A stretch of 64,000 bases of DNA from Escherichia phage ukendt: the sequence record NC_052661.1; one strand, given 5' to 3'. The notes beneath the pieces are model-generated. The model saw only the letters and a list, made by a program, of their open reading frames with translations, did not search any database and was not told the origin of the DNA. Position 1 is the stretch's first letter. Each line of letters begins with the position of its first letter. This document shows, in pieces, positions 31,391 through 49,017 of the stretch. A program made the position numbers and the translations under genes.

Positions 31391-33544
31391 ATGAAACAAG
31401 CTATATTTACTGTCACGCGAGACAAGAGAGTAAATGCGAGTTCATTTAACTACACGACTGTTGACGGAACAGCAGTCGCTGGTAGAGATTATATTGCAAA
31501 ATCGGGAACACTTGTGTTCCCTGATGATGCTGATTCTGCTACCATTGTGGTTGAAGTATTTGAACGACCAAAGAACTCAATAGATCTTAACTTCTCCCTC
31601 CAAGTTTCAGGGATTAGTCAAAATAATATGATGGTTGAAACAATCATCAATTGTATTATAACTACTATCCAAGAAAATACCACTCCAATAACTTGGACTA
31701 CAAAAGACGTTAAAATGTTCTCTCCTATGTATTGGACAATAGATTCTCAAGCAACGGAAAGTTGTTCTATTGTATCTCATGGAGACTCTTTTACTGCAAG
31801 ATTTGTAAACAGAACAACAGCAGGTTTGGCAGGGGTTATCTGGAGCACAGTTGACAAATATGACCATAAAGGTGTTGGGTATTTACCCCACACAGATTTA
31901 AGTTCAGAGAAACTTTGGTTTAAAATGGAAATTAGTCAAAACATGCCAGGTTTTAAAGAAGAACCTTTGGTGCCGACTTTGACTGTAACTCTCCTGGATA
32001 AAAGTGTTCATTATGTCAGTTTAGGATTCTACGCTTCAGATATTTCAGAAGATGGTAAAACAGCTACAATCAAGTTAGATTTTGGTAATATCTTTTCTGG
32101 CCCTAATAATGATATTCCTTTGGATATGAGTGCTGTAGATAATATTTTCTTCTCTTTGATTACAGCAAGGTATGAAGAAATAGAAGAGATTGTACCTATT
32201 GCCAGTCTAGAGGCTTGGTTTACTTTCACTCTTCTTGAACCTACTTCTGGTTACAGTATGATGAAAGTCAGCAACCTTGTCCAGCCTGAACATGATATTC
32301 GCATGTGCACATCTTATGATGATATGTATAACCTGACTCCAGAGAGAGTTATTTATAATACATATGCACTAGGTTATCGTGGAATGATTAACCATTATAA
32401 CGGAATGTCTCACTATTATGAGTTCTCATGGAACGGAACATCTTGGGCTTTAAATAGATCTGTTTTCCTGAATCCGGCTACAGAAGCTTGGCTTAACAGT
32501 TTCCATTCTATAGCTAATGAAAATGGCTACACAATAATGAACTCTTTGAGTTTTGAGTTGATGAGCACAGTTTGTCCTGTTGAATGGGTCCAGCATGATT
32601 GGAACGATGCTCTTGCAGCAACAGGGTATAAGCCTCCTAGTTACGTGTTGTCTCCAACTATTGACGAAGGCATGGAATATTTGCAAAATGTTATTAACAA
32701 AATAGCATCTATTTCTCAAGCTAATAACATTCCAGTCGTCATTCAAATTGGTGAACCTTGGTGGTGGTATAATACAGCAAGTAAAATGCCTTGTATATAT
32801 GATTACACTACCAAACTGGCATTCAATACAGAAACAGGCTTATTTGCACAAGATGCAGGAACAATAGATAATTATAAAACAGGAACGCCATTTGACGAAT
32901 ACTATGCATTTCTGTCTCGTAAACTAGGGTTAAGAGTTACAAAGTTTGCAACAGACACCAGAGCAACTTATCCTGGAGCTAAAGTAACATTGCTTCCGTT
33001 CTTACCATCAATTATCGGCAACGGTTTGATGGAGAAAGTTAACTTTCCGTCTGATTACTACATTCCTGAAGCTTTTGATTTTTATTGTTCAGAATGTTAC
33101 GACTGGCTTCTGGAAGGTAAAATGATGAAAGCATTCGATGCAATTACCATACCACATGAAAAATTAGGTTTTGAATATTCTGATATTCACTATCTTTCGG
33201 GTTTTGTTCCAGATGCTACTCTTGCACCTTTGTATGGCTTCGATCCTGAATCAAACTACCGCACGTATCTTTGGAAAATGATTATAGGTAATATAGTGTT
33301 GAACGCCAATAAGTTTGACGGACTTACACAATATATATGGGCCTATCCTCAAATAATGCATGATTCTATCACGGTAGTTAATTCTCAATCCCAAGTTTTC
33401 TATATGGGTAACGTGCCTTTGAACGTCTATTTACAGGATATCACTCTTAAACAGGCAAATGTTGAGATTGCCACCATAAGTGGAATTACATTAGCCACTA
33501 AATCTGGAGAAGATTTAGTAACAACACAAAAATTTTATATATAG
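31391..33544 (+). CDS. tail fibre/spike protein
   Basis: 717-aa ORF co-linear with neighbouring spike genes; no catalytic motif recognised. Confidence 0.4.
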   Translation: MKQAIFTVTRDKRVNASSFNYTTVDGTAVAGRDYIAKSGTLVFPDDADSATIVVEVFERPKNSIDLNFSLQVSGISQNNMMVETIINCIITTIQENTTPITWTTKDVKMFSPMYWTIDSQATESCSIVSHGDSFTARFVNRTTAGLAGVIWSTVDKYDHKGVGYLPHTDLSSEKLWFKMEISQNMPGFKEEPLVPTLTVTLLDKSVHYVSLGFYASDISEDGKTATIKLDFGNIFSGPNNDIPLDMSAVDNIFFSLITARYEEIEEIVPIASLEAWFTFTLLEPTSGYSMMKVSNLVQPEHDIRMCTSYDDMYNLTPERVIYNTYALGYRGMINHYNGMSHYYEFSWNGTSWALNRSVFLNPATEAWLNSFHSIANENGYTIMNSLSFELMSTVCPVEWVQHDWNDALAATGYKPPSYVLSPTIDEGMEYLQNVINKIASISQANNIPVVIQIGEPWWWYNTASKMPCIYDYTTKLAFNTETGLFAQDAGTIDNYKTGTPFDEYYAFLSRKLGLRVTKFATDTRATYPGAKVTLLPFLPSIIGNGLMEKVNFPSDYYIPEAFDFYCSECYDWLLEGKMMKAFDAITIPHEKLGFEYSDIHYLSGFVPDATLAPLYGFDPESNYRTYLWKMIIGNIVLNANKFDGLTQYIWAYPQIMHDSITVVNSQSQVFYMGNVPLNVYLQDITLKQANVEIATISGITLATKSGEDLVTTQKFYI

Positions 33545-33552
33545 GAGTAAAA

Positions 33553-35967
33553 ATGTCAACTACAATTACTAATTTACCCGAAACATCAAAAGTTAATGGT
33601 TCAGATTACCTGGTTTTAGATCAACCTGATAAAACTGTTAAAAGCACAGTTTCCAACTTTCTTGCTGACACTGGGGTGGTTTTAGCCACCCAGTTGAAAG
33701 ATACAGATGGAGCAGATTTAATACAATCCTCAAATGGTAATACTGTTCAGGAAGAGTTGAATAACAATCTTCTTAATGATCGTGAACAGTGGCGTCGTAG
33801 TCTTGCTGAAGCAGGGCTAACACTGGTAAGCGGTAGCTTTGAGGAAGGCGCTACAGTAAATAGTAAAACGGATGCTGTTTGGCACATTTCTGTTGGACAG
33901 TGTTATACATGGCATGGCGCTTTCCCTAAAACTGTTCCTGCTGACTCAACCCCTACATCAACCGGTGGTGTTGGTCCTAGTGCGTGGGTTAGTGTTGGTG
34001 ATGCGAGTTTGCGGTCAATAGCTCAATATAGAGCCAATAACATCGAAGCGTTAAAATCATTGCCGCTTGCAGTTGGAGACATTGTTAATATTGCTGGATA
34101 TTATGATGTTTTTGATGGAGCGCAGCATTACCGAGTGATTAGTGATGCAGATGATGGAACAGGAGTTCAGCTCAATAATGGTTTATGGGCAAATATTATC
34201 ATTAATGGCGATGCTTGTGTTGATTGGTTCGGGGCTAAAGGTGACGGTGTAGCTGATGATTGGTGGGCTATCAATAAAGCCATTAATGCTTCAATTTCTA
34301 CCGCTTATCAGGGCGGTTGGTGGGAAACGTCAAGTAGAAACCCTAAATTTAAGGTGCATCTCAGTCGCCGCTCTTATCGTATTACTCGGCAAATACTACT
34401 ACCTCCTTACATAGAGTTTTATGGTATGGGTTCGCGCTGGTATTTTTCTGGTGATAATAATTCTCGCTTAATCCCTGATTTTGATAATCCGTTGCAATTC
34501 GCTGTGAAATCTGCTAGCTATATTGTTGAAACCGGTGAACTAGCACCTGAGGGGTGGTATTCTGGGGTGGTTTGGGTTGACCCAAAAAAACTAACGACTT
34601 GTCATGGTATTAAAACTTATGGATATAGCATCGAACCAACAAAACAAATTTTAGGCGGTATAAGACTGATAGCGAGCCCAATTTCTCATGTATATGATAT
34701 ATTCATAACAAATGTTGATTTTGGAGTTTTACTGAATTGTTCATGGGTGAGTAAGGTTGACGTTAAAACTCATCATAATAAATGTGGGGTTATGTCTAGT
34801 CATGATGGTAATAACACTCACGTGGATGGTTATTTTACAGGGACAGAAATCAAACCGCTTGATGGTAATCCTTACCTCAACCCAATAGAGTCTTTAGACC
34901 CTACAACAGGGCTCCAAGACAAATCTATATCTGACCCAGACAGTAAAATAGGTGTGATTTTTTATTGGTCACAGGGGTCAACAAGTACGAATATGACGTG
35001 TGAGGGTAACACTATTTCGTTGGCTGTGGCTAAGGGTGGTGCTGATGTAAGGTGTTTATACTCAGAACGTAATTCAGATTGTACATTTACTGGGTACAGT
35101 TCACTAGTTACAATTGGTGAAATAACTGGCATTGGTGACGGTGGAACTTTTGAGCTTGGTGTAAATAATACTATTTCGTTAGACAAAGACACTCAGTATG
35201 GTGTCGCTAAACGATTTAAGTACGTGAGCGAGTGGGGTAATAAGATGTTTATGCCCTCTAGCTGGAAAGAATACACCAAAGGTTGTTTAGTTAAAGGATT
35301 TGATTATAGCGAAATTTTTGTAGATGCGATAAATGGAGATGACACTAATGTTGGTTCCAGTCTTTACCCTGTGAAAACTTTGGAGAGAGCTCTAACGCTT
35401 GTGAATTCAGTGTATACTACATCTAACTTGCTAAGCTCAGTGCCGAGGGATAGAGTAATAAAGTTAGTAGGCTCAGCAACATACTATCCAGACGGACAGC
35501 ATAGGTTCATAGGTGGATCGTTGACAATTACAAAAGCTGATAACTCACGACCGATTGTTAATTTATCAAAACCAATCCGAATTAACGACACATCTCTAGT
35601 ATTTGAGGAAGTAAATTTAGTGCGACCAACAGATGACCACGGGAATGGTGAGAATGGCGCAATTTTCCTTGAGGATGGGAGTAATGAAGTCAGATTGAAA
35701 AACTGTGATCTAAGTCTACAAAAATTCAGCTTCTTATATCCTACTTGGGGTTTTGCTGGAATATGTACCTTGGTGTTACACGGGGTTAGTGTTACTGGTG
35801 ATTCAACAACAAGAATGATACAAACAGCTGATGGATATCATGATTTGCACTTGTTTAATGTAATTAGCTACGAGACAACTTACACTGGAGGAATAGAGTC
35901 AAGACTAGATAAAGGCTATGATATACCAGCAGATAGACGTGGTCATATATTGGGTGTATCAATATAA
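33553..35967 (+). CDS. tailspike with pectate-lyase-like beta-helix domain
   Basis: 804 aa; WFGAKGDGVADDWWAINKAINAS (GDG-x-DD signature of pectate-lyase-type beta-helices); shares the FPK..VPA..STP..TGG..AW motif with two other spike genes. Confidence 0.6.
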   Translation: MSTTITNLPETSKVNGSDYLVLDQPDKTVKSTVSNFLADTGVVLATQLKDTDGADLIQSSNGNTVQEELNNNLLNDREQWRRSLAEAGLTLVSGSFEEGATVNSKTDAVWHISVGQCYTWHGAFPKTVPADSTPTSTGGVGPSAWVSVGDASLRSIAQYRANNIEALKSLPLAVGDIVNIAGYYDVFDGAQHYRVISDADDGTGVQLNNGLWANIIINGDACVDWFGAKGDGVADDWWAINKAINASISTAYQGGWWETSSRNPKFKVHLSRRSYRITRQILLPPYIEFYGMGSRWYFSGDNNSRLIPDFDNPLQFAVKSASYIVETGELAPEGWYSGVVWVDPKKLTTCHGIKTYGYSIEPTKQILGGIRLIASPISHVYDIFITNVDFGVLLNCSWVSKVDVKTHHNKCGVMSSHDGNNTHVDGYFTGTEIKPLDGNPYLNPIESLDPTTGLQDKSISDPDSKIGVIFYWSQGSTSTNMTCEGNTISLAVAKGGADVRCLYSERNSDCTFTGYSSLVTIGEITGIGDGGTFELGVNNTISLDKDTQYGVAKRFKYVSEWGNKMFMPSSWKEYTKGCLVKGFDYSEIFVDAINGDDTNVGSSLYPVKTLERALTLVNSVYTTSNLLSSVPRDRVIKLVGSATYYPDGQHRFIGGSLTITKADNSRPIVNLSKPIRINDTSLVFEEVNLVRPTDDHGNGENGAIFLEDGSNEVRLKNCDLSLQKFSFLYPTWGFAGICTLVLHGVSVTGDSTTRMIQTADGYHDLHLFNVISYETTYTGGIESRLDKGYDIPADRRGHILGVSI

Positions 35968-35989
35968 ATAATTGATATTATGCTTCATG

Positions 35990-36022
35990 GTAATTGTGGG
36001 TGAATCACTCACAATTACTTTT
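35990..36022 (+). terminator. long near-perfect inverted repeat after the tailspike gene, followed by TTTT
   Basis: GTAATTGTGGGTGA / TCACTCACAATTAC arms (one mismatch), then TTTTAG. Confidence 0.5.
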
Positions 36023-36547
36023 AGGTACTACAGTTGATAATTCAGATTGATACATTGGATTAGCAGGTGCGTGTACTACTAGCACTTGAATTTTGATACA
36101 TAAATCCGGCACCCTCCCTCACCCTCAACGCGCCCAATTGCCTCCATAGGAGGCTCATTACCTCCTTGTGGGCTTTGTTGTAGGCATGATTGCTGTTCAA
36201 TATTTTAGGCACTAACCAGCCGACATTGTTGATGGAAATATAAACGTAAACAACAATGCATATAACTCAGTTGTTGTGGCACTAAATTCTTACGTAGGTT
36301 ATAGGTTGTTGTAAAACAAAACCCCGACTCGGCGGAGAATTATAAAGGTACTATCATGGACTTCATTACGATTCAAACAAACTATGTCCTGCAAGCGCAT
36401 GTCATCGCCATGTGATAAAATGATGAAAACATATCGTAGCAGGGTTAATCTTGTCTTTAGTTACTATCGTACTAACTCAAAGTGTTGTCACTACCACTGC
36501 AAGCCCCCTCCAAAGAGGGGCTTACTTAGAAAAACAAAGAGGTTTAT

Positions 36548-36856
36548 ATGAACGAATTATTCTCACAAGGTGGTAAGGGTTCAACAGGAATCCTAACCAA
36601 CAAGCAAGCAGTAGCCCGTCACTTTGGGGTTAAACAATCTGAGGTTGTTTACTTCTCAGTAGGTGCTCTGCTTACAGGTTACAAAGTCATCTATGACAAA
36701 GTGTCACAGAGGGCTTACTCATTACCTGCTGATATTGCCCCAGGTACTACTGCCATTAGTCTTAGTGCTGCTGTACTTGTGCATTCAGCGGGTTCTGTAG
36801 ACCTTGGGGAATTAGCTATATCTCGTGATTTAAAAAGTAATGAGAACGCACTATGA
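36548..36856 (+). CDS. orphan tail-spike module (homologous to an internal segment of the 41160..44213 spike)
   Basis: ARHFGVKQSEVVYFSVGALLTGYKVIYD...GSVDLGELAISR aligns with ARKYGLLDDEVAYATAGQSLTGIKALYD...GSVDLSALAVER in the 1017-aa spike; preceded by 580 bp without ORFs. Confidence 0.35.
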   Translation: MNELFSQGGKGSTGILTNKQAVARHFGVKQSEVVYFSVGALLTGYKVIYDKVSQRAYSLPADIAPGTTAISLSAAVLVHSAGSVDLGELAISRDLKSNENAL

Positions 36857-37095
36857 GAAAATTTTTAATAGGTATGTTCTGTACATATCCTGATAATAAA
36901 GTCAGTTCTACTAAAGTCTGGAACGCTGTAGGCATGTCGGTTATGACAGGCATGTTTATCTTTTTAGGAATAGAAAAAGAAATTCCTGAATGGATGGGTT
37001 GGGCTTTTGTTTTCATGATAACTCCTTCTCGCCTCATGAAAAATCTTATTGATTTACGCTGGGGCAGATCACAATCTACCAAAGAGGATGACTAA
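36853..37095 (+). CDS. small two-TM membrane protein (holin-like or exclusion-type)
   Basis: 80 aa; hydrophobic segments VWNAVGMSVMTGMFIFLGI and WMGWAFVFMITPSRL; charged C-terminus. Confidence 0.35.
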   Translation: MRKFLIGMFCTYPDNKVSSTKVWNAVGMSVMTGMFIFLGIEKEIPEWMGWAFVFMITPSRLMKNLIDLRWGRSQSTKEDD

Positions 37096-41159: not shown

Positions 41160-44100
41160 ATGGCAACATTCCCAACATATCCAGCAACGTCTCTTGAACA
41201 GGGCGTAGATCTGGTTATTTTCTCGTCTAACCAACTCCATGATGTTATTAATGGAAGTGCTACAGAGAGTATTGAAACAGAATCAGGGTTGATACCAACC
41301 CTGAGAAAAGCCCTTGTTGACAACTTTTTCTTTAAAAGCCCATTAGATTGGGCGCAAGGCACAAACGAAACAGTTTTTAACCAACTTCGTTATTTCCAGA
41401 ATGGAGTATTGAGCGGTTATTACTACGCCCCTAACGCTACATTGGTTAACCCAATCCCTATGCAAGGGACTCCAGTAGGAGATAACAACTGGGTATTGTG
41501 GGGACTGAAAACAGAACAATTGGCAACAGAAGTCACCCCTTGGGTATATTCTGGTGCAACTGGTTATGAAACAGTAATCAGTCCTCCCTACATCTTTGAT
41601 AGTGCTATTGTTACGATCAATGGTGTTATTCAGGTTCTGGGAGAAGCTTTCCGCATAGAAGATAGTAAGATCATCTTATCTGAACCTTTGGGACACGATC
41701 CTGCGACAGGACTGCCAAACAAGCTTTTTGCTTATATTGGTAAAATCGTAGCTTCAGCAGATACAGATCCTAACCTAGAGAATCGTCTTGTTAGTTTAGA
41801 AACAAAAACGGAAGAACTAACAGAAAGCATGGATAAAGTCCCTCTGCAAACTATTGCTCGTAAATATGGTTTGTTAGATGATGAGGTAGCTTATGCTACA
41901 GCGGGTCAATCATTAACAGGGATTAAAGCTCTGTATGATCCAGTAGCACAATCTTCCTACACATTGCCTCCTAACATTACAGGGACGTTAACATCTTTGT
42001 CTGTTTCTGGAGTAATGACTTATTCTGGTGGTTCTGTAGATCTTTCTGCACTAGCTGTTGAACGTGGACAATTTGTTCATTTACCTACAAGCTTTGGTAA
42101 TAACGTAACCTTGACAGCTAAAAACCAGACGATTGGACGTGGTGCTGGTCGATATCGTTGGGCTGGAAGTTTACCAAAAAGTATTTTGGCCTCCGATACA
42201 TTGGAGACAAGCGGTGGATTAGGTCCAAATGCATGGGTTCTGACCAATACAGAAGGACTGTTAACCCCTCGTGGTGGAACATACAACGATTTATTCGATG
42301 TTGTCTACTTGTCAGAATTTGCTAACAACACAACAACATATACCACACCAGAAGCAGCTTTCCAAGCGGCACTGTTAGCAGCAAAAGCTTCGAAAAGCAA
42401 GATTCTCGATGCTTACGGTTGCGATATGACTTTCACGACAAGCTCTTTTGATATTCAAGGTATCACTTTGCGTGGGGGTGTGTTCCGTGGTCAACGCGAC
42501 TATCGTGTGCAAAATGCTACAGTAGAAGGCACAACTTTCCGTAACTCTCGTGTTATGTATTGGGGTGGTGCTGTGCGCATGTTCGATTGTTTGTGGGACG
42601 GTGCTCCTCGCGCAGGTCAAGTTGGTAGCTTGGTATTCCAAGGCAACCCAATATCAGGTACTTTTGAAATTGATAATTGTACTTTTAAAAACGGGTTGTA
42701 TGGCATCCTTCAACAAGGAACAGGGGAACCAGTAACACGCGGTGTCTTCCGTAACCTTACCTTCATGGACATGCAAGGTGATGCAATAGAACTGAACGTC
42801 ATCAATAAACATTATGATGATGGTTGTGTGATTGAGAATATTTACCTGTCTAATATCGATGGGACTAACGCTCCTATTCCTCTGTCCAACTGGGGTATCG
42901 GTATTGGTGTAGCTGGTAAAGGACCATATGGTTACGGAATTCCTGATGATCAATATTGCAAGAATATTACAATTCGTAACGTTTTTGCAAAACGTTGTCG
43001 TCAGATTGTCCACGTAGAAGTTGGTCGTAATATTTCTATCGAAAACATTCATGGCGATCCAGATCAAACTGTATCTGTTGGAACAGGTTTGGCAACTGGC
43101 GCAGTTGTAATGTATGGAAGTAAAGATTTTACGATTGATGGTGTTTATGGAGAGCCTAAAACAGACGGTAGCACACTTGCAAGTAATATCCGTATGATTT
43201 ATTTGGAGTGGGGAACTAACGCAGTTCTGGACGAAGAGGGTAATCCGGTAGTTCCGGCACAGGGTAGACCTTCAAACCCATGCTTTAACTATTCTGTTCG
43301 TAACATTCACACCAAAACTGGGCGGGTTTTTGCAGGAGTTTCCGCTGGGCCAGGTTATGAAAACAGAGTCAGCTTTGAGAATATCCGTTGTGCTGCGTTG
43401 CAGTTGTTCGGTGTAGCTTCTTGGCTTTCAATGTCTAACATCACCTGTAATATCTTTGATTGTGTTGGTCAACCTGAATCTGGTCCAGGGACATTTTATG
43501 ATGGATTCTTCCGTAGAGAAAAATCTGTTCTTGAGATGGTTAACGTAAACTGTTACCCAGATGGCAAGACGATGGTTACTGGTCGTCCACAGTGGAGCCG
43601 TTGCCGTTACTCGGATATTCATCGTGTCAACTGTAATGTTGAAGCTAATATGTATACCAATATCGCAGGTGGTATTGGAGCTATTGTAGGGACAACTGGC
43701 AAAGTTTATTACTTAGAGCCTAACCCTAGCCGAAACATTGATGGGATGCATTTCCCAACAGGGAAGGAGTTTGACAAAGGGGATATGATAGTCAAAGCGG
43801 ATAATACGTTCTTCCTTGTAACAACAAGCGGGGCATACATTCCAGATATCCCAGCTTTCGGTATTCGAGCTACACAAGCAGGAGATACCTTCCTGACACA
43901 GAACTTGACTCCTAATGGGACAGCAACAAACGCTTCTTGGTTGTATCACTATCCTCTGTCAGCAGGAACACGTATCCGTATTCCTGGTGCTGGTGTAGGT
44001 GGAGCAGATTTGGACACAGTTATTACTCGTGCACCTTATCAAGATAATGATACGTGGACTAACCCAGTTAAAATAGACATTGCAGATCCAATTGTAACGC

Positions 44101-44213
44101 CTACGAGTGCTGGAGTTAGAATCAAAACCATACCTAACGATTCTAGTAATGTTTCTGTAGGTAATACTGCGGTTATTCGCCCAACACCAGTGGTAGATGT
44201 GCCAACAACCTAA
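41160..44213 (+). CDS. tailspike with parallel beta-helix domain
   Basis: 1017 aa; repetitive beta-helix-like segments (NCTFKNGLYGIL, NITIRNVFAKRC, NISIENIHGD); shares N-proximal modules with two other spike genes. Confidence 0.6.
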   Translation: MATFPTYPATSLEQGVDLVIFSSNQLHDVINGSATESIETESGLIPTLRKALVDNFFFKSPLDWAQGTNETVFNQLRYFQNGVLSGYYYAPNATLVNPIPMQGTPVGDNNWVLWGLKTEQLATEVTPWVYSGATGYETVISPPYIFDSAIVTINGVIQVLGEAFRIEDSKIILSEPLGHDPATGLPNKLFAYIGKIVASADTDPNLENRLVSLETKTEELTESMDKVPLQTIARKYGLLDDEVAYATAGQSLTGIKALYDPVAQSSYTLPPNITGTLTSLSVSGVMTYSGGSVDLSALAVERGQFVHLPTSFGNNVTLTAKNQTIGRGAGRYRWAGSLPKSILASDTLETSGGLGPNAWVLTNTEGLLTPRGGTYNDLFDVVYLSEFANNTTTYTTPEAAFQAALLAAKASKSKILDAYGCDMTFTTSSFDIQGITLRGGVFRGQRDYRVQNATVEGTTFRNSRVMYWGGAVRMFDCLWDGAPRAGQVGSLVFQGNPISGTFEIDNCTFKNGLYGILQQGTGEPVTRGVFRNLTFMDMQGDAIELNVINKHYDDGCVIENIYLSNIDGTNAPIPLSNWGIGIGVAGKGPYGYGIPDDQYCKNITIRNVFAKRCRQIVHVEVGRNISIENIHGDPDQTVSVGTGLATGAVVMYGSKDFTIDGVYGEPKTDGSTLASNIRMIYLEWGTNAVLDEEGNPVVPAQGRPSNPCFNYSVRNIHTKTGRVFAGVSAGPGYENRVSFENIRCAALQLFGVASWLSMSNITCNIFDCVGQPESGPGTFYDGFFRREKSVLEMVNVNCYPDGKTMVTGRPQWSRCRYSDIHRVNCNVEANMYTNIAGGIGAIVGTTGKVYYLEPNPSRNIDGMHFPTGKEFDKGDMIVKADNTFFLVTTSGAYIPDIPAFGIRATQAGDTFLTQNLTPNGTATNASWLYHYPLSAGTRIRIPGAGVGGADLDTVITRAPYQDNDTWTNPVKIDIADPIVTPTSAGVRIKTIPNDSSNVSVGNTAVIRPTPVVDVPTT

Positions 44214-44278: not shown

Positions 44279-46303
44279 ATGAATTTAACAAGACCTAATA
44301 GTGCGATAGCCGATCTGGTAGAAGCTACTTATCGAAAACGTCGCAGTTTTGAGGCAGGTTTTACATTACGTAATTCCCGTGAAGTTTTGCTGTTAGCAGC
44401 AGAAGGGAATTATTACCAATGGAAAGGAACTTTTCCTAAAGTAGTTCCAGCAAACTCTACGCCAGCCACCACAGGTGGTATTTCTTCCCTTGCATGGCAA
44501 AGTGTTGGGACCGCTGATGATATAGCAATTATCAATGCCAAGTTTACGGCAGTGCAACAACAGATCGATGATTTGTCAGAAGCAATACCTGAAGCTGGTA
44601 AATCGGCTTATCAGATCGCACTTGATAATGGTTTTGTTGGAACAGAAGCCCAGTGGCTTGCTTCTTTGAAAGGGGATACTGGTGCTCAACTTAATATTAA
44701 GGGATCATTAGCAAGCACTAGTGAACTACCATCTACAGGTAACATTGCAGGAGATGGTTATATCGTAGGTGATGTGATTTACGCTTGGGATGGTTCTGTT
44801 TGGAAACTTATTTCTTCTCTTGGGCCAGAAGGGAAATCAGCTTATGAGGTATGGTTGGCAGATGGTAATACAGGATCTGTTTATGATTTTCTTACCTCTA
44901 TAAAAGGTGATAAAGGTGATGTTGGTCCTACAGGGCCACAGGGAGCACCTGGTGTTAACGCCAACGGTTTTGATTATCGTGGGGATTTGCCTTCTACAAG
45001 TAACTTACCACAACCTAACTCTGAAAACGTAAGCCAAGCGTACTCTATCGATGGTAATCTTTATGTCTCTAATGGGACAGCTTGGGTCAACATGGGTAAT
45101 ATTGTTGGTCCTCAAGGCCCACAAGGTGAGGCAGGTAAAGACGGTCTAGATGGAACAGATGGAGACGAAGGGAAATCTGCATATCAAAGTTGGCTGGACG
45201 CTGGTAATGAAGGGACAGAAGTAGATTTTGTTGCTTCCTTAAAAGGAGAGAAGGGTGACAAAGGAGATAAGGGAGATCCTGGTCCACAAGGTGAACAGGG
45301 TGTTCAAGGTATCCAAGGTCCGGTTGGTGCAGGTCTTTCTGTAAATGGTGAATTGTCAGATGTTTCAGAATTACCTTCTGTAGCGGAGGTTGGTGATGCC
45401 TACATTGTAAAAAATGACCTTTACGTGTGGATCGACGACAATCAAACGTGGCTCAATGTAGGTAGTTTGGGTGGTAGATCTATTACAGCTAAAGGTCATG
45501 TTGCAAACGGCGAAGCTCTTCCTGTTTATAATAACTATGGTGATGCTTACTTAACTGAAGACACTAGTAATCTTTACATCTATACCTACGATCAAGACAC
45601 CAATTCCGCATCTTTTGTTGACATGGGAAGTATTAAAGGCGACAAAGGTGAAAAAGGGGATAAAGGAGATAAGGGTGATCCTGGAACAAACGGAACCAAC
45701 GGTACTGATGGGACCAACGGTAAGGACGGCGCACAGTGGTTTGTAGCAACAACTAATCCAGTCGCAGGAGACGGTGTTATCAATGATTACGCCTTCAATA
45801 CTACCACTGGAGCAGTGTTTAAGAAAACAGATTCTTCTACGTGGACGCTTATAGGAACTCTTCCTAGTATACCAGAAGCCCCTCAAGACGGCTTGACGTA
45901 TGGTAGGTCTGATGGAAACTGGATCGAAATATCAGGATCAGATCCTACGGAAGCTATAACACCAACTAGAGTTACAGCAGGTTTCATGGAACTTGAAACA
46001 ACTACTGCCAACTCTGGAGCATCTTGGACTCCTTCTGGAACTTCCAATATGTATGTTGTTACAGTAACTGATGCTCTGACAGTTGGAGCATGGCCTGGTG
46101 TCACTGGCTCTACAAAACCTAAAGCGTTTTCAGCAATGATTTATTTGATTCAAGATACAACGGGACACACGGTTACACTAGATGCGTCTTATGGAGCACT
46201 AAATGATACAGAAATAGCAACTACTGCTAACGCAGTAACAATTTTGCAATTAACGTATCCTGGTGTGGGTGATATCGTGGACATGGTTGTTGTAACACGA
46301 TAG
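44279..46303 (+). CDS. tail fibre with collagen-like Gly-X-Y tracts and repeated fibre modules
   Basis: 674 aa; Gly-X-Y runs at residues ~209-229, 277-299, 322-352, 452-483; three copies of a ~29-aa module GKSAYQ..L..G...E..W/F L.S.KGD. Confidence 0.6.
   Translation: MNLTRPNSAIADLVEATYRKRRSFEAGFTLRNSREVLLLAAEGNYYQWKGTFPKVVPANSTPATTGGISSLAWQSVGTADDIAIINAKFTAVQQQIDDLSEAIPEAGKSAYQIALDNGFVGTEAQWLASLKGDTGAQLNIKGSLASTSELPSTGNIAGDGYIVGDVIYAWDGSVWKLISSLGPEGKSAYEVWLADGNTGSVYDFLTSIKGDKGDVGPTGPQGAPGVNANGFDYRGDLPSTSNLPQPNSENVSQAYSIDGNLYVSNGTAWVNMGNIVGPQGPQGEAGKDGLDGTDGDEGKSAYQSWLDAGNEGTEVDFVASLKGEKGDKGDKGDPGPQGEQGVQGIQGPVGAGLSVNGELSDVSELPSVAEVGDAYIVKNDLYVWIDDNQTWLNVGSLGGRSITAKGHVANGEALPVYNNYGDAYLTEDTSNLYIYTYDQDTNSASFVDMGSIKGDKGEKGDKGDKGDPGTNGTNGTDGTNGKDGAQWFVATTNPVAGDGVINDYAFNTTTGAVFKKTDSSTWTLIGTLPSIPEAPQDGLTYGRSDGNWIEISGSDPTEAITPTRVTAGFMELETTTANSGASWTPSGTSNMYVVTVTDALTVGAWPGVTGSTKPKAFSAMIYLIQDTTGHTVTLDASYGALNDTEIATTANAVTILQLTYPGVGDIVDMVVVTR
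45242..45334 (+). repeat. collagen-like Gly-X-Y coding repeat
   Basis: Encodes LKGEKGDKGDKGDPGPQGEQGVQGIQGPVGAG. Confidence 0.6.
45632..45727 (+). repeat. collagen-like Gly-X-Y coding repeat
   Basis: Encodes IKGDKGEKGDKGDKGDPGTNGTNGTDGTNGKDG. Confidence 0.6.
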
Positions 46304-46344: not shown

Positions 46345-49017
46345 ATGTTTCCAATTCCAATATTTACTATTATGACCAGCACTGGTGTCGTTCCTCTGCC
46401 AGCGGGTATTGTTAAAAAAGTAATCACTTTAGATTACCCAGACAATGCTGGTAATTCTAACAGCAGTTTAGCAATTTTGCTTAACGATGGTAGATTGTTT
46501 ACTCAAGGTGCAAACCTTTTTGGTGAGATTGCAGATGGAACTCGTAGTGCACGATTCAATAATTTCCACTTAGCTTCTACTGTAGTAGCGGATGTGTTTA
46601 CCGCAGATCGTTGTTTTGTTATTAAAACTAATAGTGGGGGATGGCAATATTCAGGATTGACAGCAGGGTTGGTAGGATCTATAGCAGCAGGTGGTGCGGA
46701 TGCATGTGTAACTACTTGGACCAGCTTTCCATCTGTAATAACGGGGACTATCTCTTTAGCCAATCTTAAAGAGGTTAAGGGAGGATATAACAACACTCTC
46801 TGGTTAATGAATAGTGGTGTTCTTTATGGATCGGGTCAAAACACAGTAGGCAGTTTAGGTGCAAGTACTACTAACGAAGTTTCTACTCCTCGTCAAATAA
46901 CGAGTGCAGCAGTTGCTTTTGATGCAGGTTACAACCAATGCTCTTATGTCAACAATGTGGGAACCTTGCGTGTTTGTGGAGCCAGCAAAGGTTTAGCAGG
47001 TAATAATAACACAACAAAAGCTTTTGTAAATGCTACGATATCCACTACTGAAACAGTGTATGTCAAAGATTACATCAATACCGTTTCCCAGACAATAGTT
47101 GTAGGAGATACCTCCGGTGGAACTGGTACAACAAACTACCTTTATGTTAGATCTAATACAGAAACAACCTACACTAAGCTGGATACCTTTGCAGCAGGTT
47201 TCTCAACATGGAAGTTTCCACCGAGCCGTCACTCTTTTTTCGTTGGGATTAATAATTCCTTGTGGGCTATCGGTAAGAACTATACGGCAAACTTAGGTCT
47301 GGGGTATGATTCTGCGAGCGGAGATCCACTCCAAGTGGGAAAACCAGTTAAACCTGAAGGAGTGGGTTCCTGGGATATAAACAAGCTCACAAGCGTTCAT
47401 ACGCTGAATATGGATGTTACTAACCAATTAGGTTATCAAGGAACATTTTTCGTTTATAATGGAAGTATGTATTATTCCGGTATTTGGAAAGATGGGAAAG
47501 CGTCATATCTGTTCAATAGCGGTCTAAACTATAATAAATTCACACCAATAGCAAGCTCCGTGATTACGGGTGATGTGCTGGCAACTAGCTTAACTACAGA
47601 TTCTTTAGGAATTTGTATTGTAGGTGGAACTAAACAGTTGACACATTCTGTTAGCCCAGAAGGAGGTAAACTTTTCAATATTAAATACACTTCTTCTGCC
47701 CCTGCAAACATGACAATATCATCTACTGGCTTAATGACTTTCCAAGCAGAAGGTGGTTTTGATGCAGGTATGACAGCCTTAAACGCTGAAGGAACAACTC
47801 TATCAGATATCTCTGGAGGATATGCTTCAACATTGAGCGTTTACACCCCTAGCTTATCTGCGATGGATGTAGGAACAACACAAACAATGGTAGCAGAAAT
47901 AACGCCAACAGGAGCAGCAAGCTTACCTGGTATGGTTGTTGAGTATACAACTACAGATCCTAGTGTTGCTACAGTAGATCCTACAACTGGCGTAATAACT
48001 GGAGTTGGTGATGGTGGTTGTAGAATTGGTTGCACAGCTACGTATCAAGGTGTTGTTACCGCTTCTGATAGTTCTTATTTAACGGTGAACGCTGTTGCGG
48101 GAAAGGAGTTAGCTCCATCTCCGAGTAGTAGTTTAACGGTTCTAAACGGATATTTCAACCACTCGGCAGATGGGGCGATTACGTTCCCAACTTTATCGGG
48201 TACTGTTACACCAGCTAACTTTGTAGTTAAGGTGGATGACGTTGTAGTTCCTTCAAGTAAAGTAATATTTAGAAATAAAGCTTTCTCTACAGTGGATAGT
48301 TATCCAGCAGGAGAATATAGACTGGCTATTGAATTTGCAAGTGCTTCTGTAGTTAATAATGTTGAGGTATCTATGGAAGCAAATCCAGATCTTTTAGAAT
48401 TGTGGGGCGGCAACAGGATTGGTTATTCTACAAGCCCAGCCTCACAGTTCTTAAAAGGTTGTGCTAACTTAAGACGAATAACCTCTGATTGTTTTAGTAA
48501 CACATCTTACACCGGAACGTCTATAAGTGGTATTTTCTCTGGCTGCACAAGTTTGACAGCTATCCCTGAAGGATTATTCAGCGATACTTTATTTCCTTCG
48601 ATGACAACAATGTCAAGCACGTTTGAAGGTTGTACGTCTTTAACATCTATTCCTTCTGATTTATTTAAAAATTTATCAAAAGTTACAAGATACTCTTACA
48701 CCTTTAAAAATTGCACCTCTCTTGCAGAAGTTCCAGCCGGAATGTTTGACAATATTCCAACGAAAGTAACCTCTTTAACAGCTACGTTCCAAGGTTGTTT
48801 AGCACTTACAGATTTTAATAAAATCTTTAATGACAACCCAGGGTTAACGGTTTGTGGTCAACGTGGAGCATTGTCTTCTTTCTTTAGTGGATGCACAAAT
48901 CTTACAGGAACAGGAGTAACATTAACAAGCACATTAGGTGGAGCAGCTAATAGTTACCTATTCAGGTATTGCACAAAACTTTCTGATTATAACAACATTC
49001 CTTCGGGTTATAAATAA
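46345..49017 (+). CDS. multidomain adhesin-like tail protein (RCC1-like repeats, Ig-like segment, BspA-type leucine-rich repeats)
   Basis: 890 aa; N-terminal repeated G-x-N-x-x-G-x-L-G units; central TTTDPSVATVDPTTGVITGVGDGG segment; C-terminal repeats of F.GCTSLT.IP..LF. Confidence 0.5.
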   Translation: MFPIPIFTIMTSTGVVPLPAGIVKKVITLDYPDNAGNSNSSLAILLNDGRLFTQGANLFGEIADGTRSARFNNFHLASTVVADVFTADRCFVIKTNSGGWQYSGLTAGLVGSIAAGGADACVTTWTSFPSVITGTISLANLKEVKGGYNNTLWLMNSGVLYGSGQNTVGSLGASTTNEVSTPRQITSAAVAFDAGYNQCSYVNNVGTLRVCGASKGLAGNNNTTKAFVNATISTTETVYVKDYINTVSQTIVVGDTSGGTGTTNYLYVRSNTETTYTKLDTFAAGFSTWKFPPSRHSFFVGINNSLWAIGKNYTANLGLGYDSASGDPLQVGKPVKPEGVGSWDINKLTSVHTLNMDVTNQLGYQGTFFVYNGSMYYSGIWKDGKASYLFNSGLNYNKFTPIASSVITGDVLATSLTTDSLGICIVGGTKQLTHSVSPEGGKLFNIKYTSSAPANMTISSTGLMTFQAEGGFDAGMTALNAEGTTLSDISGGYASTLSVYTPSLSAMDVGTTQTMVAEITPTGAASLPGMVVEYTTTDPSVATVDPTTGVITGVGDGGCRIGCTATYQGVVTASDSSYLTVNAVAGKELAPSPSSSLTVLNGYFNHSADGAITFPTLSGTVTPANFVVKVDDVVVPSSKVIFRNKAFSTVDSYPAGEYRLAIEFASASVVNNVEVSMEANPDLLELWGGNRIGYSTSPASQFLKGCANLRRITSDCFSNTSYTGTSISGIFSGCTSLTAIPEGLFSDTLFPSMTTMSSTFEGCTSLTSIPSDLFKNLSKVTRYSYTFKNCTSLAEVPAGMFDNIPTKVTSLTATFQGCLALTDFNKIFNDNPGLTVCGQRGALSSFFSGCTNLTGTGVTLTSTLGGAANSYLFRYCTKLSDYNNIPSGYK

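Follow-up and report, generated by a model that had tools for sequence, protein, structure and literature searches.

A stand-alone tailspike head domain beside the variable spike gene of Escherichia phage ukendt: a probable relic of spike cassette exchange

Introduction

The tailspike head subdomain D1 is already well described, as are its fold, its docking role and the recombination that takes place at the 5' ends of tailspike (tsp) genes. In TSP1 of phage CBA120, D1 comprises residues 13-96 and D2 residues 97-154, and the metal ligand on the three-fold axis is a His in TSP1, where it binds Zn, and an Asn in TSP3 (PMC6517402). D1 docks TSP1 on the XD3 domain of TSP4, and binding of phage G7C gp63.1 to gp66 requires the XD3 of gp66 (PMC8825819). 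When a tsp gene was acquired in an engineering experiment, one tsp gene was deleted and another truncated (PMC11414711). Here we describe a 102-residue open reading frame (ORF), referred to as the stub, at positions 36548-36856 on the plus strand of a 64,000-nucleotide (nt) stretch of Escherichia phage ukendt (NC_052661.1), called the window below. A first-pass annotation had read this ORF as an orphan copy of a module of the 1017-residue spike encoded in the same window, and had left open whether it is an adaptor protein or a remnant of a recombined spike gene. The stub is best read as a gene remnant from the exchange of receptor-binding-protein cassettes. We give a probability of roughly 60% to the reading that it is a dispensable relic of a truncated TSP1/gp63.1-type spike gene and not a working adaptor.

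The phAPEC8/phi92 group, Stephanstirmvirinae, consists of myophages with genomes of about 150 kb. About 2.5 kb around the stub matches some 120-200 phage records at no more than 96% identity, nearly all from Phapecoctavirus and Justusliebigvirus, and the window is by its sequence a Phapecoctavirus-like myophage. A literature search returned no description of the stub and no proteomic paper; in public records, the ORF already goes by 'tail spike protein' or 'tail protein'.

Results

The stub starts with an ATG. Its residues 1-93 constitute a complete D1 head subdomain, and residues 94-102 form a tail (DLKSNENAL) that does not belong to D1. A Shine-Dalgarno motif (AAGAGG, 36537-36542) is located 5 nt 5' of the ATG, and the stub's stop codon and the start codon of the next gene overlap (ATGA). 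The product includes the peptides HFGVK and AYSLPADIAPGTTAISLSAAVLVHSAGSVDLGELAISR. In phmmer searches, residues 1-94 align at about 85% identity with CBA120 TSP1 (ORF210; 4OJ5; E 7.7e-45), G7C gp63.1 (4QNL; E 9.5e-45) and gp48 of Shigella phage B2 (9D84; E 2.4e-41), and the same residues are about 65% identical to CBA120 TSP3 (5W6F; E 3.6e-30). The match to CBA120 TSP4 (5W6H; E 1.5e-24) is to a module internal in that protein, and in 9d80_D and 9d83_D the matching part is D1-like and excludes the XD domains. The stub also matches PHROG families, namely phrog_7992 and others. Given the alignment over residues 1-94 and the published TSP1 domain limits (PMC6517402), the stub comprises the whole of D1 and no further domain. 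It is not a complete tailspike or depolymerase, as the ORF is over at residue 102 and encodes no D2, neck, receptor-binding or catalytic domain. Nor does it have the particle-anchor domain and T4 gp10-like XD domain that characterise branched receptor-binding-protein adaptors and anchors such as B2 gp49, the KP34-type anchor and the gp66 N-terminus, as it aligns to D1 alone. Pfam assigned the stub to no family, PF18668 included; the Pfam copy used holds no D1 model, and PF18668 represents D2 only.

An AlphaFold2 model of the stub contains a helix at residues 14-26 and six strands. The predicted local distance difference test score (pLDDT) is 79-86 for residues 21-80 and below 50 for residues 1-15 and 90-102. 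Foldseek aligns the model with D1 of 4oj5 and 4qnl at a query template-modelling score (TMq) of 0.71-0.73 and a root mean square deviation of 1.9-2.1 Å. The stub is predicted to adopt the D1 fold, with an N-terminal helix followed by a small β-sheet domain. Its His25, within the sequence ARHFG, aligns with the metal-ligand motif of TSP1, and other stubs have Lys, Arg or Asn at this position. At the nucleotide level, nt 1-281 of the stub are 80-84% identical to tailspike genes of Kuttervirus and G7C-like phages. The D1 module heads spikes in 449 phage records found by tblastn, among them those of Kuttervirus, other Ackermannviridae (e.g. Dickeya phages) and G7C-like Schitoviridae; the homologous-protein search yielded nearly only short proteins and is no census of D1-bearing spikes. 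As judged from these alignments, the stub is the N-terminal D1 of the TSP1/gp63.1-type spike lineage of Kuttervirus and G7C-like podophages.

The resident 1017-residue colanidase spike (gene at 41160-44213) is a more distant relative. Residues 20-93 of the stub and residues 230-302 of the spike share 33 of 74 positions (45%; BLASTP, E 3e-18). The alignment scores 65.9 bits, against 16.0 ± 2.5 and at most 23.5 for 200 residue shuffles of the stub, and all the motifs quoted by the first-pass annotation are present (LTGYKVIYD/LTGIKALYD, GSVDL, LAISR/LAVER). The similarity that had been noticed is hence significant, but the idea that the ORF was copied from this spike does not hold, since 45% identity compares with about 85% to the TSP1/gp63.1 lineage. 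tblastn finds the D1 module twice in the window, at 36548-36853 and at 41847-42065 (plus strand), the latter being the internal D1 of the colanidase spike. The stub is the sole window protein with an N-terminal D1.

A stub is present at the same position in roughly one quarter to one third of Stephanstirmvirinae genomes. ORFs of 101-103 residues occur there in the Phapecoctavirus phages TSP7_1, ZCKP1, nieznany, Ro121c4YLVW, dw-ec, KKP 3954 and iGC_PHA_EC001, in the Justusliebigvirus phages BME3, KKE7M and PD06, and in metagenomic contigs whose wedge proteins are only 80-84% identical. PaulScherrer is another stub-bearing phage, and stub-bearing genomes number about 40 in all. The order of variable spike, stub, 80-82-residue membrane protein and 495-residue wedge protein is conserved. 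Every 101-103-residue stub ends in SRDLKSNENAL/P, with its stop codon overlapping the ATG of the membrane-protein gene. In the window, this gene (36853-37095, plus strand) encodes 80 residues matching phrog_1322 'membrane protein', in agreement with the small membrane protein proposed before, and has a weak Shine-Dalgarno motif, GAGAA, inside the stub tail. A frameshift or read-through from the stub into it was considered and rejected, as the two ORFs simply overlap in an ATGA, with the stop codon of one and the start codon of the other.

Full-length spike genes align with the stub at the nucleotide level as far as nt 281, and homology to relatives without D1 begins at about nt 275. These two limits define a single truncation junction at 36822-36828 (plus strand), where full-length tailspike homology gives way to homology with the stub-less or mini-ORF relatives AV126, PHB05 and JLBYU50. 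Because the tail SRDLKSNENAL/P and the synteny are common to them, all stubs go back to one origin. The stub is truncated relative to functional homologues, at a junction common to all stubs, as is expected of a gene remnant. Hence, it is no orphan but a syntenic element of many Stephanstirmvirinae with a single junction, which is eroded or missing in others. None of the Stephanstirmvirinae genomes examined has a full-length D1-headed spike at the stub position. Scanning sequence collections for the junction sequence yielded one viral contig, the PD06 genome, and no metagenome contig; two of the loci compared (L012 and L023) both derive from the PD06 genome.

The membrane and wedge genes next to the stub are present in about 122 phage records, but only 43 have at least 80% of the stub 3' half. 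In phi92, which lacks a stub, 48 nt separate gp143 (endosialidase) from gp144 (membrane protein), and the solved phi92 virion structure has no stub-like component (PMC13450770). The stub is also missing in ETEC-TG and in the metagenomic relatives L013-L020, and tblastn detects the internal D1 alone in phAPEC8 and ESCO5. Other relatives carry degraded forms. SKA64 (locus L004, 4824-5168) encodes a 114-residue chimera, of which residues 4-52 are a T7-family holin (PF10746, E 7.5e-20) in frame with stub residues 41-102. The chimera is evidence for a spike cassette of a T7-like phage having brought with it the 5' end of the gene that follows the fibre gene there. ALITA and SD2 have forms of 63-64 residues with new N-termini of unrelated sequence, the ESCO9 stub lacks a start codon, and that of locus L011 is 5'-truncated and frameshifted by one extra T. 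Only short 3' remnants remain in ESCO8, AV123, AV125, cardinal and EC.P2. In AV126 (L021, 4937-5035) and PHB05 (L022, 4937-5035 and 5527-5625), a 32-residue mini-ORF, MESQLSQPKQVINVKVNKQSIAHDLKSNENAL, consists of a D1-type N-terminal peptide followed at once by the common tail, and it keeps the ATGA overlap. PHB05 has two copies of it through tandem duplication of a unit made of the spike 3' end, the hairpin, the mini-ORF and the membrane gene. None of the eroded, chimeric or frameshifted stubs would give a product able to form D1, and the phages with eroded stubs were all isolated as plaque formers. The stub thus varies between presence, further decay and absence among close viable relatives. 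Its absence from viable phages and its erosion from the 5' side argue that it is dispensable.

The nucleotide alignment of stubs falls into two parts. The 3' part is near-invariant from about nt 180, and the 5' part occurs in at least four unrelated 'flavours'. In the window, identity to the otherwise 98-100% identical TSP7_1 drops to 68-92% in a putative gene-conversion patch (36551-36730, plus strand), with a dip to 68-72% at 36641-36730 and flanks of 98-100% on both sides. Over nt 1-117, the window differs from same-flavour stubs by ten synonymous changes and one residue change (M4L). Such near-synonymous-only divergence indicates that this segment diverged under constraint and was imported from a functional D1 gene. 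For the most divergent N-terminal flavour, that of locus L008, the donor search gave no close match (50% at best). ZCKP1 and BME3 have nucleotide-identical stubs, yet the synonymous divergence (dS) of their wedge genes is 1.29; between the window and nieznany, dS is 0.09 for the wedge gene and 0.39 for the stub. The phylogeny of the stub is, by these comparisons, decoupled from that of its neighbours.

The constant 3' part (36731-36856, plus strand) is near-identical in 17 genomes, and its variants are mostly nonsynonymous. Specifically, the 3' 135 nt contain 10 nonsynonymous and 6 synonymous variants, corresponding to a nonsynonymous-to-synonymous rate ratio (omega, dN/dS) of about 0.6, or about 0.9 without two boundary sites. 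With these 16 variants neutrality is not rejected (p = 0.39-0.77) and an omega of 0.1 is (p ≤ 5e-4); the neighbouring genes have omega values of 0.03-0.1. Among the variants are non-conservative changes at D1-conserved positions, namely D85G, R93C/W and Y49C. Constraint on the stub protein is likely relaxed, although the small sample does not prove it. In the 5' part, the selection estimate is confounded by gene conversion.

To the left of the stub lies the 804-residue spike gene (33553-35967, plus strand), which occupies a hypervariable slot. Comparison with related phages at this locus showed that its nt 1-452, encoding the N-terminal anchor and D2, are alone conserved in the genus. The receptor-binding part (residues 160-804) has no close relative in the phage collection, where the best matches, at 26% identity or less, are Acinetobacter Friunavirus tailspikes; the spike may have a new receptor specificity. 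The 580 bp between this gene and the stub (35968-36547) contain mechanical ORFs of 50-55 residues and nothing longer, consistent with their earlier description as ORF-free. A hairpin with a near-perfect 14-bp stem followed by TTTT (35990-36018, plus strand) is the likely terminator of the spike gene. It was overlooked by a consensus terminator scan, probably owing to its AT-rich stem. The scan of the plus strand for promoters found no sigma-70-like site above shuffle expectation, a consensus that may not fit the late promoters of these phages. That the gap holds an RNA gene was considered and rejected: over 35900-36900, Rfam gave only a sub-threshold miRNA match and ARAGORN gave nothing.

Pieces of other phages are found in the gap. 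A 134-nt fragment (36020-36153, unstranded), which starts about 50 nt downstream of the spike gene, shares 89% identity with the right-end short terminal repeat annotated in the T7-like Providencia phage PS3 and has weaker matches to terminal repeats of KP34-like Klebsiella phages. A second fragment (36143-36221, unstranded) is 86% identical to a non-coding stretch of the N4-like phage SP5M. Both fragments are, by their matches, recombination scars. The PS3-like terminal repeat just 3' of the 804-residue spike gene suggests that the receptor-binding part of this spike was captured from a podophage genome end. The scars, the matches of the 804-residue spike and the holin fragment of SKA64 indicate Autographiviridae-type podophages as the probable source of the slot cargo, which would have been captured with a little flanking DNA and with its right-hand join in or before the stub.

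Immediately upstream of the stub, the segment 36311-36547 (plus strand) is common to other stub-bearing Stephanstirmvirinae, its left edge being ragged. At 94% identity it matches the DNA that immediately precedes a D1-bearing gene in U1G, the sole N4-like podophage with such a match. As U1G carries this region before D1, myophage-podophage recombination through D1 has happened. In U1G (Gamaleyavirus; L032, 3501-4051), the region is followed by a 107-residue D1-only ORF labelled 'tail spike protein', and fragmented tail-fibre ORFs come after it; the D1-only ORF represents a second D1 stub, of independent origin, or else a gp63.1 homologue with a frameshift. The module shuffling that had been suggested for this locus is strongly supported.

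The genes around the stub are in the order shared with Phapecoctavirus and Justusliebigvirus: a 958-residue tail protein, a 717-residue sheath-like TIM-barrel protein, the variable spike (804 residues here), the 102-residue ORF, the 80-residue membrane protein, the 495-residue baseplate wedge protein, a 209-residue baseplate protein, a 343-residue fibre, a fibre assembly protein, a lipoprotein, the 1017-residue colanidase spike and a 674-residue fibre. A structure search with the 958-residue protein gave no solved relative. The 717-residue protein (31391-33544) has Calx-beta and 'non-contractile tail sheath protein' N-terminal and TIM-barrel domains (PF23844, PF23845; E 6e-79), here in a contractile-tailed phage, and an 890-residue tail protein (46345-49017) has an RCC1-like β-propeller region and a Big_2 Ig-like domain. 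The module that follows D1 in the colanidase spike, which had also been seen near the N-termini of the proteins encoded from 33553 and 44279, is PF18668 Tail_spike_N (D2) in all three. On the plus strand, Pfam places it at residues 302-361 of the 1017-residue spike (42063-42242), residues 93-150 of the 804-residue protein (33835-33990) and residues 12-77 of the 674-residue protein (44414-44497). The 674-residue fibre (44279-46303) starts directly with D2, without a preceding D1, and has collagen-like repeats (PF01391) at residues 454-485. A 'split head', made of the D1 of the stub and this D2-first fibre, was rejected as a requirement, as phi92 has gp151, a tail fibre protein after the colanidase, in a stub-less genome. 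Several records labelled as Campylobacter (B15 and others), Acinetobacter, Pseudomonas or Serratia phages are 95-98% identical to this E. coli group; their host labels may be mis-assignments or reflect contaminant phages.

Discussion

We propose that the stub began as a secondary spike gene of TSP1/gp63.1 type, which a single truncation at the boundary of D1 and D2 shortened but left with its ribosome-binding site (RBS), its start codon and the whole D1. Its reading frame would then extend over 9 codons of the leader of the following gene and end on the ATG of that gene. The resulting stub would mark the right-hand border of the hypervariable spike slot in phi92/phAPEC8-like myophages, and each replacement of the slot cargo would involve a crossover in or near it. 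As crossovers fall there, the 5' half would repeatedly be overwritten with D1 from functional spike genes or other stubs, or be eroded from the left by illegitimate joins; the 3' half would drift. Homology to D1-coding 5' ends would make the stub a frequent site of crossover and gene conversion. The stub protein presumably has no essential virion function. The ORF would persist by recency, by gene-conversion 'refreshing' and possibly by translational coupling to the membrane-protein gene.

Several observations weigh against a dispensable relic. The stub of the window is intact, retains the near-invariant D1 residues and His25, and has a good RBS, so that its product is probably made. Its truncation falls exactly on the domain boundary, which means that the product could fold, and the model is consistent with a product that may do so. 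The 101-103-residue ORF persists throughout the full-length stubs, which are 65-97% identical and represent four or more N-terminal flavours, and dN/dS between divergent flavours is 0.11-0.2; this low ratio may go back to functional donor genes. Only 16 variants underlie the neutrality estimate. Moreover, the colanidase spike has a weakly XD3-like segment and no other window protein begins with D1, which could in principle leave a docking site unoccupied.

These points lead to the alternative that survives best, which we consider unlikely: the stub would be a functional cap or adaptor, a free D1 that trimerises on an XD3-type platform such as residues ~121-200 of the 1017-residue spike. That it would stabilise or block this platform, in a phage no longer carrying a full-length D1-headed spike, is doubtful to the same degree. 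By analogy, the D1 of TSP1 binds the XD3 of TSP4 and gp63.1 needs XD3 to bind gp66 (PMC8825819), and head-only adaptors are known in related systems, e.g. B2 gp49 (PMC11654681). The stub comprises all of D1, includes His25 and is modelled with a confident core fold, no other window protein begins with D1, and intact 101-103-residue forms are the commonest state among stub-bearing genomes. The candidate docking platform, just upstream of the spike's own D1, is the segment of residues 128-177 (41541-41690, plus strand). It matches the XD3-type (T4 gp10-like) segment preceding D1 in an Ackermannviridae TSP4-like protein at 38% over 55 residues, a weak similarity (E 0.007), and residues 121-176 weakly match podophage branching 'tail adaptor' chains (E 1e-3 to 0.4). 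The colanidase spike may be a branching platform. However, the same 1017-residue spike occurs without a stub in ETEC-TG, phAPEC8 and ESCO5 show the internal D1 only, and BME3 and L008 carry an 804-residue-type colanidase spike (no Tail_spike_N match on record) yet have a stub. The stub does not consistently co-occur with a type of colanidase spike. Many viable relatives have truncated, chimeric or frameshifted stubs unable to form D1, the 3' half evolves near neutrality with D85G and R93C/W at otherwise conserved positions, and tailspike head fragments alone trimerise poorly (PMC8825819). Of the adaptor and the remnant that the first-pass annotation had offered, the remnant fits better; the adaptor has its sole support in the intact D1 fold and the weak XD3-like segment.

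An improbable alternative is a leader ORF, in which selection would keep a frame ending on ATGA and ribosomes would re-initiate on the membrane-protein gene, the peptide itself being irrelevant. The stop/start overlap is found in every stub, the Shine-Dalgarno motif of the membrane-protein gene (GAGAA) is weak, and near-neutral evolution of the protein would be expected. The mini-ORF of AV126 and PHB05 keeps its own RBS, frame and ATGA overlap despite near-total loss of D1, and SKA64, ALITA and SD2 retain in-frame ORFs with an ATG. Against this, L011 (frameshifted, no ATG) and ESCO9 (no ATG) share the leader sequence without an ORF, and stub-less phages express the membrane gene from a short intergenic region with its own Shine-Dalgarno motif. 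The tail in L009 holds a full AAGGAG, which makes translational coupling unnecessary there, and the numbers are too small to show in-frame retention above chance.

Least supported, and very improbable, is a landing pad or decoy, whose D1 homology would capture spike genes from co-infecting Kuttervirus or G7C-like phages or whose free D1 would poison their spike complexes: the 80-84% nucleotide identity over nt 1-281 to their tailspike genes, the mosaic 5' half with synonymous-only divergence, the cross-family recombination through D1 in U1G and the known recombination at conserved tsp 5' ends (PMC11414711) all speak for it, but no examined Stephanstirmvirinae genome has captured a full-length D1-headed spike at the stub position, homology alone would just as readily bring about recombination at the stub, second-order selection for evolvability is difficult to maintain, and a decoy should show purifying or diversifying selection instead of erosion and frequent loss. 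There is likewise little chance that free D1 is a working protein, acting as a plug that regulates occupancy of the XD3-type platform on the colanidase spike or as a decoy that titrates the XD3 sites of competitors. Were the decoy true, it would be a natural dominant-negative assembly inhibitor between phages, with its 5' half kept current by gene conversion.

For annotation, the finding means that the stub should not be included among the receptor-binding proteins in host-range predictions for phi92/phAPEC8-like therapeutic phages. The finding is an ordinary one overall and its uses are modest, but it illustrates well how spikes are exchanged. The locus offers an unusually complete natural series, from the intact D1 stub through 5'-eroded stubs and the 32-residue mini-ORF to nothing, and the series shows spike cassette exchange across phage families. 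That the donors were podophages is seen from hitch-hiking pieces of their genomes, i.e., the 5' end of a T7-type holin gene and a T7-like terminal repeat. A natural insertion point, homologous to D1-headed spikes, is formed by the stub together with the conserved region upstream of it. Should the XD3-like platform of the colanidase spike be functional, the site could be used for adding a spike to these phages.

Compared with known systems, the stub is closest to D1 of CBA120 TSP1 and TSP3. It shares with them the fold of a helix and a β-sheet and the disordered N-terminal 13-15 residues, and with TSP1 the His of the Zn site (PMC6517402). The two tailspikes differ in having D2, the neck, the β-helix and D4, all missing in the stub, and in their carrier, an Ackermannviridae phage instead of a phi92/phAPEC8-like myophage. 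G7C gp63.1 and B2 gp48, secondary spikes of N4-like podophages, are near-identical to the stub in the N-terminal 94 residues. In these phages the head attaches the spike to gp66 or gp49 via XD3 (PMC8825819, PMC11654681), and the N4-like phage U1G shares the DNA upstream of the stub. In contrast to gp63.1 and gp48, the stub lacks an esterase or receptor-binding part and does not adjoin a gene for a gp66-like partner. The primary spikes CBA120 TSP4 and TSP2, G7C gp66 and the 1017-residue colanidase of the window contain the same domain internally; these copies lack the N-terminal 19 residues (MNELFSQGGKGSTGILTNK), follow XD domains and are far more divergent. Finally, the remnants of receptor-binding-protein cassette exchange in G7C-like phages and Ackermannviridae, where 5' ends are conserved and 3' ends swapped, resemble the stub in a conserved N-terminal coding sequence and in recombination breakpoints concentrated at the borders of modules (bioRxiv 10.1101/542787; PMC11414711). 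The stub differs from them in being a natural, widely shared single-domain ORF of another phage subfamily, for which a series of erosion is documented.

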